Virus record (IMG/VR): IMGVR_UViG_3300029256_000055
Location: 1-6,149 of that record
Length of the DNA stretch: 6,149 nt
Strand: one strand, 5' to 3'
Origin: a virus
A program made the translations under genes and the position numbers. The notes under the pieces are model-generated. The model was not told where the DNA came from, made no database searches, and saw nothing but the letters and a program-made list of their open reading frames with translations. How positions within the stretch are numbered: the stretch's first letter is position 1; each line of letters opens with the position of its first letter. This document shows positions 508 through 6,149 of the stretch, piece after piece.

Positions 508-772
508 TACCTAGTGTCCATATAACCTTCCAGCTTTTGCACTTTTCTTCGAGCGCACCGCCAATAAACAGATTGGGAAATAACTCTTTCATCTTTCTGA
601 TTGTTTCCTTGGCTATGCGTTCTTCATAGAACTTCTCGACCGTTATCTCGTCCTTGAATATGATTGTAAGTCTGTAATGCCTTTTGTCTTCGGTTTTGGC
701 TTTTTTTTCCATAATTGATAGTTTTAATTTTTCTTTCTGTATTGCAAATATAGGCATTTTTTTTGAAAACAC
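500..772 (-). CDS. Hypothetical protein; the track start at 772 is GTG, and the more likely start is ATG 712..710 (70 aa, MEKKAKTEDKRHYRL...)
   Basis: The ORF is on the coding strand and is the first gene after the long intergenic region. A Bacteroides-type promoter motif lies inside the first 20 codons of the long form, which favours the internal ATG. I recognise no motif. Confidence 0.5.
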   Translation of the reverse strand: MFSKKMPIFAIQKEKLKLSIMEKKAKTEDKRHYRLTIIFKDEITVEKFYEERIAKETIRKMKELFPNLFIGGALEEKCKSWKVIWTLGND

Positions 773-775
773 AAA
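745..775 (-). promoter_or_regulatory. Candidate Bacteroidota sigma-AB-type promoter (-33 TTTG / -7 TAnnTTTG) driving the small-ORF/capsid operon
   Basis: The - strand reads TTTG (775..772), then 19 nt, then TATATTTG (752..745). This matches the published Bacteroides consensus of -33 TTTG and -7 TAnnTTTG at roughly 19-21 nt spacing. It lies about 33 nt upstream of ATG 712. Confidence 0.4.
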
Positions 776-860
776 ATTTTTTGAACATTTCCTATTATAA
801 TCATATAATATTTTTCTATTAAAAAATAAATCTATATGTATATGATAGCCTGTTGAAACT

Positions 861-958
861 GTTCATAACTTTGTTAATTCATTTATTTTCAATCATTTAC
901 CTTGTTTATAACTTTGTTTATAACTTTTCATTTATTTATTTGTATTGTTCATAACTTT
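861..958 (+). repeat. Iteron array A: four copies of GTTYATAACTTT (861-872, 904-915, 916-927, 947-958), with interspersed CATTTATTT motifs
   Basis: Read directly: gttcataacttt, gtttataacttt, gtttataacttt (the last two in tandem), gttcataacttt. catttatttt/catttattta occurs at 880-889, 929-938 and 998-1007. The block is very AT-rich (about 14 G+C in 861-940 by hand count). Confidence 0.8.
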
Positions 959-1002
959 TTTCGTATAGTAAAACATTTCATTATTCCAAATTTTAAGCAT
1001 TT

Positions 1003-1068
1003 ATTTTATCAACAAGTTATTAACAGGTTTATCAACCGATTTTTATAGGTTATCAACAGGTTATTAAC
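1003..1068 (-). repeat. Iteron array B: five 11-12 nt units GTTRATAAC(Y)T on the - strand, as three tandem units plus two tandem units
   Basis: The - strand units are GTTAATAACCT (1068..1058), GTTGATAACCT (1057..1047), GTTGATAAACCT (1036..1025), GTTAATAACTT (1024..1014) and GTTGATAAAAT (1013..1003). They sit in an 11-12 nt register with a 10-nt gap at 1037-1046. The core GTTNATAAC is the same as in array A but in the opposite orientation. Confidence 0.85.
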
Positions 1069-1073
1069 ACCCA

Positions 1074-1209
1074 CAAGCCGAATACTTGGAGGCTTGCATA
1101 TAGTTGGCAGCATGACCACCCGCGAGTGCTGTCGCGGGTAGCGAGCTAGCCTCGCGTAGTCATGTTAATAAGCGCGGCCTCTGGCCGCCTACCTTCGAGT
1201 CACTCAAGG
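1074..1209. other. GC-rich hairpin cluster (island A) immediately downstream of rep; candidate ssDNA origin/primosome site and/or terminator complex
   Basis: Hairpins read from the sequence are listed here. caagcc/ggcttg pairs at 1074-1079/1091-1096. A three-way junction at 1111-1164 has outer stem catgac/gtcatg and encloses acccgcga/tcgcgggt (1118-1125/1132-1139) and gcgag/ctcgc (1141-1145/1151-1155). gcggcc/ggccgc pairs at 1174-1179/1183-1188. ccttcgag/ctcaagg pairs with one bulge at 1192-1199/1203-1209. About 51 of 80 nt are G+C in 1111-1190 by hand count. Confidence 0.6.
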
Positions 1210-2295: not shown

Positions 2296-2361
2296 GGCGA
2301 GCGCCGACTGAGCTCCACCAACTGGCGAGTTCCGCATGGCGCGTTAGGGATAGTAGGCGAG
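2296..2361 (+). repeat. Three spaced copies of GGCGAG (2296-2301, 2324-2329, 2356-2361), two of them in the context TAGGCGAG
   Basis: Read directly: ttaggcgagcg, ctggcgagtt, gtaggcgagta, with spacings of 28 and 32 nt. The related motifs GCGAG and GGCGAAG recur in island A (1122-1126, 1141-1145, 1212-1235) and at 3521-3525. Confidence 0.5.
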
Positions 2362-2362
2362 T

Positions 2363-2422
2363 ATGGCCTTTAGGCCATTTGTCTGAGCCGGATAGCCCGA
2401 CCCCCTTGCGGGGTAACGCCCC
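2363..2422 (-). other. Hairpins directly downstream of the VP2 stop: a CCCC-GCAA-GGGG hairpin (GNRA loop in - sense) with an alternative GGGG/CCCC pairing, and ATGGCCT/AGGCCAT
   Basis: Plus-strand cccc ttgc gggg at 2402-2413 reads CCCC GCAA GGGG in - sense, and gggg 2410-2413 can alternatively pair with cccc 2419-2422. atggcct tt aggccat lies at 2363-2378. No U-tract follows either hairpin, so they are not canonical intrinsic terminators. Confidence 0.5.
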
Positions 2423-3490
2423 CTATAATTTTCCTACAATCATCTTGATGATGCTTCCAAGCATCTTTGCGTATTCTCCTTGACCTGTCATCTCGTCCAG
2501 CATCTTGCTGAATGCCTGGTCTTGTTCCAGCTCCCAGTCTTCTCTTTCGTATTTTTTCAGCATTAGCTGTAGTTCCTGTGTCGGCTTGGTCATCTCGTCC
2601 AGCTTCCCTTTTGCGATTAGTCCTATATCATTGCTTAGCTTGTCGAGAATCTTCTTGTCGAATAGCATCTTCTTTTCGTCGTGAGACAGTGTTGCCATGT
2701 CTTTCTTGAAGTTTTTGTAGTACCTTTCTATCACGGTTTCCTCCCATCCCTGAGACTTTCCATTTTCGTACCATACGCTCGACTTGATAACGTTGTTCAT
2801 GTCGTCCTGGAACTGTGCGATTCTGGTCTGTACTTCCTTGTTTTCGATGTTTGCCTTGATAAGCTTGATTGATTCTTCGGTCGCTTCTGCTGTTTTTTTC
2901 AGGTTCTCGATTTTCTGTTCTACTTCCTCGGTATCTTTCTTGTTCTTCCTTACTTCGGCTACTTTCTTTGCCAGGTCTATTCCTATACCTACCAGATTTT
3001 CAACCTTTTGAGCTGTTGTTTCGCTTCTTGTCTTTTCGGCTTGTGCATTTATCAGAGCTGTCTGTGCAGCTGTCTGTTGTGCCTGTAATGCTACTTGTAG
3101 TCCCATTGGTTGCATTGCCGTTGCCGGACTGACCGTTGCACCGTGTGCCTGACCCGGACTTCCCGACCCTCCGTTTAGCAGTGCCGGATTCAGTCCTGCA
3201 GCTTTCATCTGCTTTACCTGGTTTTCGTAACCGGTATAGTCAAACATTTCCTTGGCATATTCCTGACTCTTTGCCGCGGCTTCCTTGTTCCATTGGTTCT
3301 GTAGTTCCATCCTTCGGTTTTCGTCTCTGTTTTGCAACGCATACATCTCTCGCCCGTATTCCATCTGTTTTTGCTGGAGCTCTCTTTGCATGTCCCTGTC
3401 CTTTGCGCTGCTTACTGCTCCTGCTATGGTTCCTGCGAGCCCGGTAATTAAGCCACTTCCTCCTCCTCCTAAAAAATCTAAAAATCCCAT
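2423..3490 (-). CDS. VP2: DNA pilot / minor capsid protein VP2 (phiX174 gpH analogue)
   Basis: The 355-aa product has a Gly-rich hydrophobic N-terminus (MGFLDFLGGGGSGLITGLAGTIAGAV). It also has the conserved-looking MKAAGLNPALL motif and a long charged, coiled-coil-like C-terminal half. Its position and size are typical of microvirus VP2. Confidence 0.85.
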   Translation of the reverse strand: MGFLDFLGGGGSGLITGLAGTIAGAVSSAKDRDMQRELQQKQMEYGREMYALQNRDENRRMELQNQWNKEAAAKSQEYAKEMFDYTGYENQVKQMKAAGLNPALLNGGSGSPGQAHGATVSPATAMQPMGLQVALQAQQTAAQTALINAQAEKTRSETTAQKVENLVGIGIDLAKKVAEVRKNKKDTEEVEQKIENLKKTAEATEESIKLIKANIENKEVQTRIAQFQDDMNNVIKSSVWYENGKSQGWEETVIERYYKNFKKDMATLSHDEKKMLFDKKILDKLSNDIGLIAKGKLDEMTKPTQELQLMLKKYEREDWELEQDQAFSKMLDEMTGQGEYAKMLGSIIKMIVGKL

Positions 3491-3506
3491 AACTTGATTG
3501 TTTTCG

Positions 3507-3523
3507 CGCTTTTTTGAAAAGCG
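3507..3523 (-). other. 7-bp hairpin 17 nt upstream of the VP2 start codon
   Basis: cgctttt (3507-3513), ttg, aaaagcg (3517-3523) form a perfect inverted repeat. It is immediately adjacent to a degenerate iteron copy, aggttattacac, at 3524-3535. Confidence 0.6.
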
Positions 3524-3551
3524 AGGTTATTACACTAGATTATAATGGCTA

Positions 3552-3575
3552 CATGCGTACCCGAAGGTACGCATG
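3552..3575 (-). other. Perfect 10-bp hairpin capped by a UUCG tetraloop in mRNA/viral sense, 20 nt downstream of the VP3 stop
   Basis: catgcgtacc (3552-3561), cgaa, ggtacgcatg (3566-3575). In - sense this reads CAUGCGUACC-UUCG-GGUACGCAUG, with a C(UUCG)G closing pair. No U-tract follows. Confidence 0.7.
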
Positions 3576-3594
3576 ACTTGTTGAAGTCCTACTG

Positions 3595-3921
3595 TCATGT
3601 AGGTTGCCCAGCATCTGTTGATGCGCCGCCTTGAGCGGTATCTTTCTTTTCTGTTTCTCCGCTTGGAGGTTGTTGACCTTTTGCAATGCGCTCCCTGTTT
3701 ACTCGATCCATCGCGTCTTGCGCAATTTCCCACTTGTCTGCTCTCACGTCGTATTGTGGCATTACTCCCTTTTCTTTCGGCGTATAGATTAATGGTGAAG
3801 TATCCTTGATAGGCTCTCCTGTTTCCACTAATTTCTTGCATCTGTCCTCAATGGACTGTCCTTCGTATGATTCCACCCCGAATTGGGTAAAACTTCTTGT
3901 AATGATTCTTGGCTTTCCCAT
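3595..3921 (-). CDS. VP3: Internal scaffolding protein VP3 (probable)
   Basis: The 108-aa ORF starts 5 nt after the VP1 stop. The segment GVMPQYDVRADKWEIAQDAMD resembles the Y-(D/N)-(I/V)-R-x-D-(R/K)-(F/W)-x-I-A core I recall from gokusho/alpavirus VP3 proteins. The C-terminal tail is low-complexity and polar. Confidence 0.72.
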   Translation of the reverse strand: MGKPRIITRSFTQFGVESYEGQSIEDRCKKLVETGEPIKDTSPLIYTPKEKGVMPQYDVRADKWEIAQDAMDRVNRERIAKGQQPPSGETEKKDTAQGGASTDAGQPT

Positions 3922-3926
3922 ATTGC

Positions 3927-5909
3927 TTACATTAAAGGTATCTGTGCTGCGCTCATAACGCGTCTTGCTATAATTCTCTTTCCTATCTGTACCCAGAAGT
4001 CCCTGTTTGTCTCCGTGTTGGTTGCGAAGATGTACGTATAGTCTTTTGGTGAGATATATGTACTTGGATTGGTAATCGCTCCCGCTTCATTAACGTTATA
4101 CACTCTGTTCAGCACCATGTAGCTCTCGGCTTCTCCTGCTGCGAAATCTGCATACGTCTTGTTTACGTCCGTCATGTAGTTCAGCCATGCAGGCTGCTTT
4201 CCTATCGCTTCTTTTAACAAAGCCTCGCCGTGCATCTGATTGCTTAATAAGTCCTGGTATCCGACTCCGTCCAGCTGTGGTTTGTGCAGGTCGTCCATGG
4301 TTTTCAGTTGCATCATATCCCAGTCGTTACCCTGTGAGTAGTCTACATTCGGCGTGATGCTTGCAATACCGATGATATAGCACGGTTCGTTGCACTTGAT
4401 TTTGATTCTGCCGCCTTTTTTCCCCTGGTTAAATCCACGTCCCGCCATGCTTCCTAATGGTTCTTCCACTCCGCTTGCCGTTGATGCCGAGTTTGATACC
4501 ACCGCTTCAAAGTCGATTGTTGTTGACATACCTCCCTCGTATACTGGAGTTTCGGCTCTGAAGTAATAGTCTGTTGTGTATACGGTTTCAATCCAGTCCT
4601 TGTAACTTCCGCCGCTGATTGCAATGCGGTTCAGCATGTTGTACACTTTTTGTGCCAGGTTCAGCGCGTCCAGGTTAAGTTTTCCTCCGCTTACGTCTAC
4701 GTCTGTTACCGCGTTGATTCCATTATCACCGTCTACCCACTCTTTGTTCACCCAGTTGTTGAACAGGTCTGACTGGTGTGTTTTCAGACATAGTCCTCCC
4801 ATCTCAGAAGTTACGATTGGCGGAATATTCTGCGTTGTTCCTGCGGTTTCAGGATTCGGACTGAACAGTACATTGTAAATGAATAGTGACTTAAGTTTTT
4901 CGTCGCTTCCTTCTCCGATTCGGATTTGTTCACGTCCCTTACTCAGGATATATTCTCTTAAGTCATCGATTTCTGATAGTGGGAACGAGCTTGTGTATGA
5001 GTCTGTTACTGTTCCTTGTGCGATATTTTCGGTTGTTCCTTTAAGGGTTATGCTGGTTCCGTTGTTTGCTTCTATTTTTCGTGATGTTCTGTAATAAACT
5101 CCTTCTCTTGATTTGATTACTATTTTGTTTTTTTCGATAGATACTTTTTCCCATGAAGTTTCGATTGCAATTATATCTATGTATATAGGCTGTGAATCTA
5201 ATGTGAATTTTATTTTTTTTATGTCTTCCAGCTTTAAATCTGTCCCTGTAATTGTTACCGTAGCCGGGGATGTACAGATTAAGTAATGACTTGGATTTGT
5301 AAATTCATTATTACTTACGGTTCCCGTAAAATCTCCGGACACTATCGCCGACGCATTCTGAATCGAACTGCCGCCCATTATATAGAACCATTCTTCCTGC
5401 TTGTTGGCATAATAGTTTTTGAACACGTCATAATATGCCAGGAACGGTACAATCTGATAGTCACCTTTATAGAGCTTGCTGTCTGCGTCATGTGGTCCTT
5501 TCCTTACTCCCAGATATTCAGCCAGGCTTCCTTTCCCCATCTTGTAGTTCTTTGTCCACATACCTGCCGTTGGCAGTTTTACCTTGCTCATATCCAGTCC
5601 GATATTGAGTGTGTTGTTATGCAGCATTGCGTTGTACAGTCTTATAGGACACGTAAATACGTCTGCCTGGAACTTGAAGTTCCCGAACAGTGGCCCGATA
5701 GTCGGATGTGTCATGATTCGTGTGTCCAGGTCGATATCAAATGTATCGCCAGGCAATCCTACCAGCTTCATGAATGGTACCAGTGTACCTACTCCCATAG
5801 GACTGCGCCATGCACTTGACAGGTTGTGTGTGCTTCTTCCATACTCTCTAAGGGAGACCGACATCTTGCCGGAATCCCCTAGTGTGTTTTTTCCGATGTT
5901 TACTTTCAT
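3927..5909 (-). CDS. VP1: Major capsid protein VP1 (phiX174 gpF family)
   Basis: The 660-aa product has the N-terminal motifs RSTHNLS...GTLVPF...LPGDTF...THPTIGPLFGNFKFQADVFTCPIRLYN, which are characteristic of microvirus and Alpavirinae VP1. It is the largest ORF. Its ATG overlaps the upstream ORF stop as ATGA. Confidence 0.95.
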   Translation of the reverse strand: MKVNIGKNTLGDSGKMSVSLREYGRSTHNLSSAWRSPMGVGTLVPFMKLVGLPGDTFDIDLDTRIMTHPTIGPLFGNFKFQADVFTCPIRLYNAMLHNNTLNIGLDMSKVKLPTAGMWTKNYKMGKGSLAEYLGVRKGPHDADSKLYKGDYQIVPFLAYYDVFKNYYANKQEEWFYIMGGSSIQNASAIVSGDFTGTVSNNEFTNPSHYLICTSPATVTITGTDLKLEDIKKIKFTLDSQPIYIDIIAIETSWEKVSIEKNKIVIKSREGVYYRTSRKIEANNGTSITLKGTTENIAQGTVTDSYTSSFPLSEIDDLREYILSKGREQIRIGEGSDEKLKSLFIYNVLFSPNPETAGTTQNIPPIVTSEMGGLCLKTHQSDLFNNWVNKEWVDGDNGINAVTDVDVSGGKLNLDALNLAQKVYNMLNRIAISGGSYKDWIETVYTTDYYFRAETPVYEGGMSTTIDFEAVVSNSASTASGVEEPLGSMAGRGFNQGKKGGRIKIKCNEPCYIIGIASITPNVDYSQGNDWDMMQLKTMDDLHKPQLDGVGYQDLLSNQMHGEALLKEAIGKQPAWLNYMTDVNKTYADFAAGEAESYMVLNRVYNVNEAGAITNPSTYISPKDYTYIFATNTETNRDFWVQIGKRIIARRVMSAAQIPLM

Positions 5910-6149
5910 TCCTTTTCCTCCTTATAAGTTATCGCTCTTTCAAACGCTCCTGCTACTATCTTGCAGATTCTTTCAAGTGTAATTTGTTCCAGACTCTTGA
6001 TAAGTTCTTTTTTCGTGTTGTAGACTCCGTCTGATACCAGTTGGTTTCCTACTGTTCCGAACCATACGTCCTGCTCTTCTAGTTTTCCTTTTCGCAGCAT
6101 GATTACTCCGTGCAAGGCTTCTGTATATTCCTGTTCTTCTTCTGCCTTT
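5906..6149 (-). CDS. C-terminal part of the junction-spanning 100-aa hypothetical protein (true coordinates on the circle: 136..1 joined to 6072..5906)
   Basis: The track ORF 5906..6115 begins at a TTG, but the frame stays open to the window end. It continues through the repeat to ATG 136. The stop TGA (5908..5906) overlaps the VP1 ATG. Confidence 0.6.
   Translation of the reverse strand, partial: KAEEEQEYTEALHGVIMLRKGKLEEQDVWFGTVGNQLVSDGVYNTKKELIKSLEQITLERICKIVAGAFERAITYKEEKE
6073..6149. repeat. Terminal direct repeat, copy 2 (identical to 1-77)
   Basis: See copy 1; the 77/77 identity was verified by eye. Confidence 0.97.

Follow-up and report, generated by a model that had tools for sequence, protein, structure and literature searches.

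The sequence analyzed here, hereafter the window, comprises all 6,149 nucleotides (nt) of the IMG/VR virus record IMGVR_UViG_3300029256_000055. It corresponds to a circular microvirus genome of 6,072 nt copied with terminal redundancy, bases 1–77 recurring at 6073–6149, and its main intergenic region carries two opposed arrays of a short repeat (860–1069) that are the subject of this report. Because every gene of the window lies on the minus strand, the strand that is packaged and has mRNA sense is the reverse complement of the numbered sequence; features read in that direction are described in viral sense. The genes comprise those for the major capsid protein VP1 (3927–5909), a 108-amino-acid (aa) open reading frame (ORF; 3595–3921), the pilot protein VP2 (2423–3490), and the 316-aa replication initiator (Rep) VP4 (1228–2178), along with several further small ORFs without known domains. 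VP4 matches PHROG 942 and Pfam REP_ORF2-G2P (PF23343), the latter being the only Rep-type Pfam family that it matches, and no gpA model was found among its profile matches.

The interval 775–1075, with 21% G+C, is the genome's only large AT-rich non-coding stretch and extends, in viral sense, from the VP4 stop codon to the late promoter, which serves the operon of small ORFs and VP1; array A lies downstream of the VP4 gene. This promoter (745–775, minus strand) was read from the sequence as a -33 element TTTG (772–775), a 19-nt spacer, and a -7 element TATATTTG (745–752), and we take it to be of the Bacteroides -33/-7 type. A megablast search of the window against GenBank phages returned no match, and a scan of the entire window against Rfam at E values up to 1 was equally negative. 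The nearest GenBank VP1 is 49% identical, and the related GenBank records annotate genes only. An initial annotation, made from the sequence alone, had remarked that nothing like these arrays was annotated for this phage group.

That annotation described nine copies of a core, GTTNATAAC, all within 861–1068. The location stands, but the count requires a slight correction: seven copies are exact (plus strand, 861, 904, 916, and 947; minus strand, 1016, 1049, and 1060), all of them inside this interval and against 0.17 expected from whole-window shuffles, while two further minus-strand sites (~1005–1013 and ~1028–1036) read GTTGATAAA, one mismatch away. The four plus-strand copies read GTTYATAACTTT, as reported. 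A better core common to both arrays is the 9-mer TTATNAACA, which occurs nine times exactly in the genome, eight times within 860–1069 and once at 1163–1171, in addition to a near-copy, TTATCAACC, at 1029. Dinucleotide-preserving shuffles of 780–1080 yielded a mean of 0.12 copies, with none of 5000 reaching the eight observed, so that local AT composition falls far short of accounting for the repeats. Tandem Repeats Finder reported an 11-nt period at 1006–1069 (5.8 copies, 67% matches, one degenerate slot) and a 12-nt doublet at 902–927, consistent with the tandem register of 11–12 nt near one helical turn that had been proposed. The spacings (11, 12, 21, and 11 nt in array A; 43, 12, and 31 nt in array B) correspond to 1.05–1.14, 2.0, 2.95, and 4.1 helical turns. 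Given the enrichment over shuffled sequence and the near-whole-turn spacing, the repeats are a real feature of this genome: a cluster of five plus four boxes, uniformly oriented within each array and in helical phase. No second repeat family was found in the window.

Array A, on the plus strand, begins nearest the VP4 end with box A1 (1061–1069; TTATTAACA, viral sense TGTTAATAA), which forms a conserved column block, and continues with A2 (1050–1058; TTATCAACA, 11 nt from A1), A3 (1029–1037; the conserved near-copy TTATCAACC, mismatched at position 9, 21 nt from A2), A4 (1017–1025; TTATTAACA, 12 nt from A3), and A5 (1006–1014; TTATCAACA, 11 nt from A4); the slot 1038–1049 between A3 and A2 holds no box. 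An AT-rich spacer of 51 nt (955–1005), containing an invariant viral-sense AAAATTTGGAA, leads to array B on the minus strand. Array B consists of B1 (946–954; TTATGAACA, plus strand TGTTCATAACTTT), B2 (915–923; TTATAAACA, 31 nt from B1, with the same spacing in relatives), B3 (903–911; TTATAAACA, 12 nt from B2), and B4 (860–868; TTATGAACA, 43 nt from B3 and 85 nt upstream of the promoter -33 element). An invariant 13-mer, viral-sense TTCAACAGGCTAT (845–857, minus strand), adjoins B4 and is followed by an AT-rich tract (776–844) that reaches from array B to the promoter; 100-nt windows here contain 18–19% G+C, a composition that makes the tract a candidate easily melted region. An isolated tenth box, TTATTAACA (1163–1171, minus strand), lies within a GC-rich insert. 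Two further signals considered in this region were set aside: a match to the IHF-site pattern WATCAANNNNTTR, which the 11-nt tandem produces automatically and which we treat as a by-product of the repeats, and a XerCD dif-like palindromic segment at ~831–849, whose likeness is weak and which is not conserved in three relatives (L010, L011, and L013).

To assess conservation, related contigs were collected from three sources: a VP4 query, which matched 16 IMG/VR loci; a degenerate pattern scan of viral contigs, whose mostly unrelated matches were filtered by box density and which added more contigs; and a search for VP4 homologues of 49–59% identity, which supplied L247–L250. Two opposed arrays are conserved in at least 22 related contigs whose VP4 proteins are 49–94% identical, and 14 of these (VP4 64–94% identical) bear both arrays in the same place. 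In these 14 relatives the 31/12/43 spacings of array B are identical, and the 11-nt spacing of adjacent array-A boxes is kept. The four more distant genomes, L247–L250, carry clusters of the TTATNAACA-type unit in the same intergenic region, with TTATCAACAGG three times in tandem in L247. The positional constraint was counted with the nine boxes of the window as template and the aligned columns of the 14 relatives, giving 126 box instances. At positions 1–4 and 6–9, no more than 2.4% of instances depart from the window, against 42% at position 5 and 7–23% at box-flanking positions. Column conservation is 0.97 inside the boxes versus 0.88 between them (p = 9e-8). The alignment of relatives thus bears out the expectation that the core and its phasing would be kept while the flanks drift.

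The conserved unit as a whole consists of five boxes, the 51-nt spacer with its invariant AAAATTTGGAA, four opposed boxes, TTCAACAGGCTAT, and the AT-rich tract, and in most cases the late promoter follows it at a distance of 100–200 nt. Within the 13-mer, the stretch AACAGGNTA is restricted to array-bearing microviruses and therefore belongs to the unit; the 13-mer was also considered as a universal VP4 nick site, a role rejected because array-less microviruses lack it. Inserted sequence lies between the unit and VP4 in the window as well as in L247, whereas in L250 two copies of an inserted element come between the unit and the promoter and leave the arrays ~450 nt away from it. The arrays are absent from six GenBank microviruses and from L251; L252 and L255 (VP4 52% identical) belong to these array-less genomes, although they are as close by VP4 as the array-bearing L249 and L250. 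Among the genomes compared, neither a small ORF nor any other phage gene co-distributes with the arrays. One 8,618-nt contig, L092, contains both arrays twice, ~5.9 kb apart, an arrangement that suggests a circular microvirus genome assembled beyond unit length.

The initial annotation overlooked that the repeat unit is a one-mismatch DnaA box. TTATNAACA corresponds to TTATNCACA, the DnaA-box consensus, except that position 6 is A instead of C, and every exact box differs from TTATNCACA by this single C6-to-A change, which places it within the usual rule of at most one mismatch; none is a strict consensus box. Position 5, the one free to vary, is exactly where the DnaA-box consensus has its N.

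To examine whether the same units occur outside microviruses, 185,579 bacterial species genomes were scanned for the doublet TGTTNATAAC-N1-2-TGTTNATAAC, which gave at least 120 loci. Among the matches listed, 36 of 120 doublet loci adjoin dnaA, dnaN, or recF, mostly within 500 nt, a proportion far above chance for so few genes. With the trigger doublets masked, the other TTATN?ACA 9-mers within 400 nt of these listed loci carry A at position 6 in 69 cases, C in 67, T in 5, and G in 5. A6 is therefore as frequent as C6 at real DnaA-box clusters, and AT-richness does not explain it. Directly upstream of dnaA in L240, TGTTAATAACttTGTTGATAACcTGTTAATAAC stands beside six consensus boxes, and the same units are interleaved with consensus boxes between dnaA and dnaN in L179 and adjoining recF in L139. 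Experimental work on Thermoanaerobacter tengcongensis points in the same direction: its oriC box consensus is TTATCNACA, and its DnaA bound an oligonucleotide with TGTTGATAA beside TGTGGATAA at 8 nM (PMC1888806). The box type of the phage arrays is thus one used in bona fide chromosomal origins, both at dnaA-proximal loci and in T. tengcongensis. Two other accounts of the likeness were rejected. A captured host origin fragment does not fit, because similarity to the bacterial loci ends within 20–27 nt of the boxes; nor do integrated microvirus copies, as none of the 120 bacterial loci among the matches listed encodes microvirus proteins.

Variant boxes of this kind also occur in double-stranded DNA (dsDNA) phages. 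T5-like phages possess eight conserved DnaA boxes, among which the commonest non-consensus forms are TTATCAACA and TTATTAACA (preprint 10.1101/866236). In unrelated siphovirus-type contigs encoding a terminase, an SPP1-type portal, minor capsid protein 2, and a scaffold protein, arrays of 8–11 of the same units, again opposed, lie between the minor-capsid-2 and scaffold genes (L079, L100, L107, and L072, representing one phage type; also L088 and L102). These arrays are located just upstream of a TATAAT promoter and abut it; the promoter is of the extended -10 type (TGTGTATAAT). Some of the arrays also include TGTGGATAA or TGTGTATAA boxes. Such an arrangement suggests that a DnaA-linked control of the structural-gene operon may operate in these dsDNA phages. 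Two other contigs deserve mention in this context. Near the end of a 54-kb IMG/VR contig (L080, 9300–9480), about ten consensus TGTGGATAA boxes alternate with six TTATCAACA/TTATTAACA boxes of opposite orientation, and the ORFs around this cluster have no informative domains. The 413-kb record IMGVR_UViG_3300031994_000001 contains at least 12 separate GTTATNAACAAAGTTATNAAC matches (L027, L029, L033, L040, L051, L058, L074, L099, L101, L105, L108, and L112), with a maximum of three boxes per 300 nt and no dense arrays, so that this jumbo virus shows the two-box motif in dispersed form.

On the presumed host side, the Bacteroidota-labelled doublet loci among the matches listed resemble the phage arrays, with A at position 6 in 13 cases and C in one. 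These listed sites are intergenic and lie upstream of dnaB (L129), nrdD (L138), mutL (L198), parA (L154), mraZ (L181 and L153), and HU-like genes (L186 and L203); at L131, five phased boxes stand beside a transfer RNA gene. In a metagenome-assembled Prevotellaceae genome (HAN089), the end of L127 and the start of L190 both lie inside the same TGTTGATAAC run, followed by TCAACTTGCA, which suggests that the assembly broke off inside a longer array of these boxes in the chromosome.

The DnaA proteins of this group were examined at the residues that read the box. A published primer for the Porphyromonas gingivalis dnaA promoter begins GGTGTTGATAAC (PMC4222909); the P. gingivalis locus located with it, together with its DnaA, led to a set of 120 Bacteroidales DnaA proteins (P0121–P0240; see also L287, 7792–9213). 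Base-specific contacts are reported for six DnaA residues (R399, P423, D433, H434, T435, and H439), and the TnCACA half of the box is read by the helix spanning 434–451 (PMC7561715, PMC5742627). All 120 proteins keep R399 and H434. In contrast, T435 is replaced by Ala in 116 of them and P423 by Ser, Ala, or Asn in 118, with Pro found in none; the Porphyromonas group additionally carries Asn, Thr, or Ser in place of D433. Thirteen DnaA proteins of other phyla, found beside doublets, retain Thr or Ser at 435. The changes at T435 and P423 mean that the recognition module is altered in the half of the box where the phage motif differs, which is suggestive but no proof.

Taken together, these observations lead us to interpret the region as an oriC-like cluster in which nine to ten 9-mers of the DnaA-box type, TTATNAACA, would serve as a platform for host DnaA, a reading to which we assign a probability of about 0.5. 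Its general form was anticipated by the initial annotation, which likened phased, opposed repeats to the sites of origins or operators bound cooperatively by a protein, and given the strong conservation that likening holds. We infer binding by DnaA in this host, and an effect of that binding, from the features described above; that DnaA is the protein that binds the arrays appears rather probable, whereas a cis-acting enhancer or regulator role as their main function is put forward more tentatively and at somewhat less than even odds. On the dsDNA replicative form, host DnaA would bind the boxes cooperatively, as it does on chromosomal DnaA-oligomerisation regions, with the two opposed arrays lying on the same helical face and flanking the 51-nt AT-rich spacer. 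The reader of the A6 boxes would be the DnaA of a Bacteroidota host, with its altered box-reading module. The resulting nucleoprotein complex might bend and destabilise the neighbouring AT-rich DNA. In this way it would enhance or regulate, as an accessory element dependent on the host, both the synthesis of phage DNA and the late promoter next to it, and so couple phage development to the DnaA status of the host. At high replicative-form copy number, the arrays would also titrate DnaA.

Several observations weigh against this interpretation. Position 6 is A in 125 of the 126 box instances, and no consensus box is present in any microvirus array; because a protein that accepts C would not obviously impose so strict an A6, the reading needs a host-specific preference. 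The binding experiment with the T. tengcongensis variant box used it only as the partner of a consensus box (PMC1888806). The dnaA upstream regions of five Bacteroidales give little help: three contain neither box type, and two from Porphyromonas contain one TGTTGATAAC each, ~230 nt upstream, although Bacteroidota oriC is reported to lie far from dnaA (PMC4755523). No DnaA-trio-like triplet run was seen by eye beside the arrays. Related phages lack the arrays, so the unit is accessory. Finally, a Bacteroidota host is itself deduced from the promoter type as sole evidence and should be regarded as presumptive.

Among the alternatives, the arrays could be an operator or upstream element of the late promoter whose ligand is not DnaA but a small protein of the phage or a global regulator of Bacteroidota with a site that resembles a DnaA box by coincidence. 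The position of the arrays ~100–200 nt from the promoter in the window, L247, L248, and L249 would suit this role, as would the siphovirus-type arrays abutting an extended -10 promoter and the Bacteroidota doublets upstream of promoters, and a distinct protein would readily accommodate the strict A6. However, no small ORF is common to all array-bearing genomes and none has a recognisable DNA-binding domain; in L250 the two inserted-element copies place ~450 nt between arrays and promoter; other phyla mix the same units 1:1 with consensus DnaA boxes beside dnaA and dnaN; and the free position is that of the DnaA-box N. We consider such an operator unlikely, although it ranks first among the rival explanations. 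A working miniature oriC acquired by this clade of gut microviruses, at which DnaA opens AT-rich DNA and loads the host helicase, is a distinctly unlikely variant; it would permit replication or persistence independent of Rep, as in a DnaA-dependent plasmid, in a carrier or pseudolysogenic state, might shut down host initiation through sequestration of DnaA, and would imply a Bacteroidales box TTATNAACA read by DnaA with Ala435 and Ser423. Improbable, too, is a DnaA sink acting in trans, in which hundreds of replicative forms, each with ten boxes, would titrate DnaA and halt host initiation. The datA locus and the DnaA-box clusters of Bacillus subtilis titrate DnaA on a smaller scale, all the evidence for DnaA-box identity applies equally, the element is accessory and clade-specific, and the siphovirus-type arrays stand at unrelated genome positions, as would suit a position-independent function; the rigid spacings, opposed orientation, and linked 13-mer and AT-rich tract nevertheless suggest a defined complex acting in cis.

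The initial annotation had raised a Rep-based reading as one hypothesis, namely recognition by VP4 at a phiX174-like origin of the viral strand. Under this explanation the repeats would be Rep iterons, the "bind" locus of a rolling-circle origin, to which VP4 attaches before nicking nearby, comparable with the 11-bp direct repeats of pMV158 and the iterons of geminiviruses. The arrays do lie directly downstream of the rep gene and in the main non-coding region, repeats phased at 11 nt are typical of Rep binding loci, and the viral strand contains TTGATA, as at the nick sites of phiX and pC194. Yet the motif remains constant over VP4 identities of 49–94% and is missing from L252 and L255 at 52%, so it does not covary with VP4, and the same units occur in siphovirus-type contigs and bacterial origins, none of which encodes VP4. 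The G of TTGATA is the freely varying position 5. The phiX174 origin sequence cited in the initial annotation is correct, but the resemblance to it is at chance level: the 30-nt origin has no match in the window within three mismatches, and the best ungapped alignment, on the non-viral strand, gives 18/30, while shuffled genomes give 16–21. Furthermore, there is no significant hairpin (z = -0.71), and the 13-mer is not common to all genomes with a VP4 homologue. The Rep hypothesis is consequently highly doubtful. The least probable of the explanations considered is that the inverted arrays fold in the single-stranded DNA (ssDNA) genome into a hairpin that rebuilds double-stranded DnaA boxes and serves as a complementary-strand origin, like the R6K "A site" of the ABC primosome. 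An incoming ssDNA genome needs a priming signal read by the host only, arrays A and B are imperfect inverted repeats with arms of 12–23 nt and 73–92% complementarity, and the minimum-free-energy fold does pair A with B. This fold, however, reaches only -15.4 kcal/mol (the same z score), with 47 of 200 shuffles equally stable. On the viral strand both arrays have a purine at position 5, so that each box pair would contain a central purine–purine mismatch, and since the array spacings differ, the boxes are unable to pair in register; moreover, a far better candidate single-strand signal, with ten covarying pairs, lies at 2337–2423. A plasmid partition centromere of the parC type, in which two sets of 11-bp iterons surround a promoter, was also rejected, as no ORF contains ParR/ParM-type domains and the arrays are mutually inverted rather than direct.

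The element at 2337–2423 (minus strand) is a conserved, structured, GC-rich sequence of ~87 nt that reads, in viral sense, GGCGTTACCCC..GGGGTCGGGCTWTCCGGCTCARACA-[variable hairpin]-ATACTCGCCTNCWATCCCTAACGC. It was also found in L001, L020, L085, L263, L277, L279, L283, L252, L256, and, in two copies, L250. RNAalifold applied to 11 copies predicted 22 pairs, ten of them with compensatory double changes, and the unpaired CTCARACA and ATACTC are invariant; no Rfam family matched the element. It was found only in microvirus-sized contigs except for L279, a 5-kb stretch of a 42-kb contig. The microvirus contigs that contain it are diverse, array-less ones among them, and its genome position varies: it precedes VP4 in this clade but follows it in others. 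The element is a candidate single-strand replication signal (a complementary-strand or Rep origin) or non-coding RNA, and as a universal signal of the single-strand kind it is a stronger candidate than the arrays.

Other features of the window were noted in passing. A GC-rich block (1080–1227, 58% G+C) separates the VP4 stop codon from array A and is present in most close relatives; it is absent from L007, L008, L009, and L014, where array A begins 10–20 nt past the VP4 stop, and therefore behaves like an insertion. As ssDNA the block folds well (-37.9 kcal/mol, z = -2.98), and a 9-nt tandem, TGGCGAAGC (2.7 copies, 1211–1234), runs from its end into the VP4 3' end. A perfect 10-bp hairpin with a 4-nt loop, CATGCGTACC-CGAA-GGTACGCATG (3552–3575), was read from the sequence just downstream, in viral sense, of the stop codon of the 108-aa ORF; it lies inside two overlapping ORFs of 103 aa (3530–3841) and 45 aa (3549–3686), and the true gap before the VP2 start is 3491–3529. 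A listed 90-aa ORF (500–772) begins at GTG 772 and overlies the -33 element of the late promoter. The first ORF of the operon probably starts at the conserved ATG 712 (MEKKAKTED..., 70 aa), a start that the alignment of relatives supports.

In the human gut, few phages are as abundant as microviruses, and outside the phiX group their cis-acting DNA signals are almost uncharted. Chromosomes, plasmids, and some dsDNA phages are well known to carry DnaA-box clusters; for Microviridae, searches of the literature on this family and on Alpavirinae found no report of iterons, a replication origin, or DnaA boxes like these. If the proposed reading is correct, a part of the phage cycle, be it replication, late expression, or host shut-off, would be wired to host DnaA, a dependency on the host initiator not known before in this phage family. 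The DnaA box of Bacteroidales would then be TTATNAACA, matching the T435A and P423S changes, which could aid in locating the poorly defined origins of Bacteroidales and provide a host-prediction signal for uncultured phages.

Among the known systems closest to the element are chromosomal DnaA-oligomerisation regions, including those of the dnaA-dnaN origins of Firmicutes and others, with which it shares 9-mers within one mismatch of TTATNCACA, gaps of 2–3 bp, and an 11–12-nt period. Like chromosomal origins, for which the left and right arrays of Escherichia coli oriC form the basis of comparison, it combines two opposed arrays with adjacent AT-rich DNA, and identical units, such as TGTTAATAACttTGTTGATAACc, occur in dnaA-proximal clusters. 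It differs from them in residing in a 6-kb ssDNA rolling-circle genome that encodes its own HUH-type Rep, in having A6 in all boxes, and in lacking dnaA, dnaN, or helicase-loader genes nearby. In P1 oriR and plasmid origins such as those of pSC101 and R6K (compare also lambda), DnaA boxes accompany separate Rep iterons, unlike in the window with its single repeat family. The 30-nt gpA origin of phiX174 shares with the phage region the short AT-rich strings TTGATA and TTAATAAC; however, that origin lies inside gene A, and VP4 matches REP_ORF2-G2P rather than gpA.

The experimentally studied oriC of T. tengcongensis is similar in its variable position 6 and in counting TGTTGATAA as a box, and efficient DnaA binding there needs at least two neighbouring boxes (PMC1888806). 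It is, however, a Firmicute chromosomal origin in which consensus and variant boxes are mixed. The injection-stop region of T5-like phages likewise represents a mobile element with conserved, precisely arranged host DnaA boxes, in which the variants TTATCAACA/TTATTAACA are paired 3 bp apart within inverted repeats (10.1101/866236). About half of the T5 boxes are consensus, in contrast to the microvirus arrays, and the membrane injection-stop role is itself a hypothesis. With the Rep iterons of rolling-circle replicons (pMV158, geminiviruses, CRESS viruses, and f1 gpII), the arrays share short phased repeats near rep; the phage motif differs in not being replicon-specific, in its lack of covariation with Rep, and in having no adjacent nick-site hairpin. 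The f1 origin also includes an accessory AT-rich enhancer bound by host IHF, and this host-bound enhancer may offer the closest, if loose, functional analogy to the role proposed here for the DnaA-box arrays.

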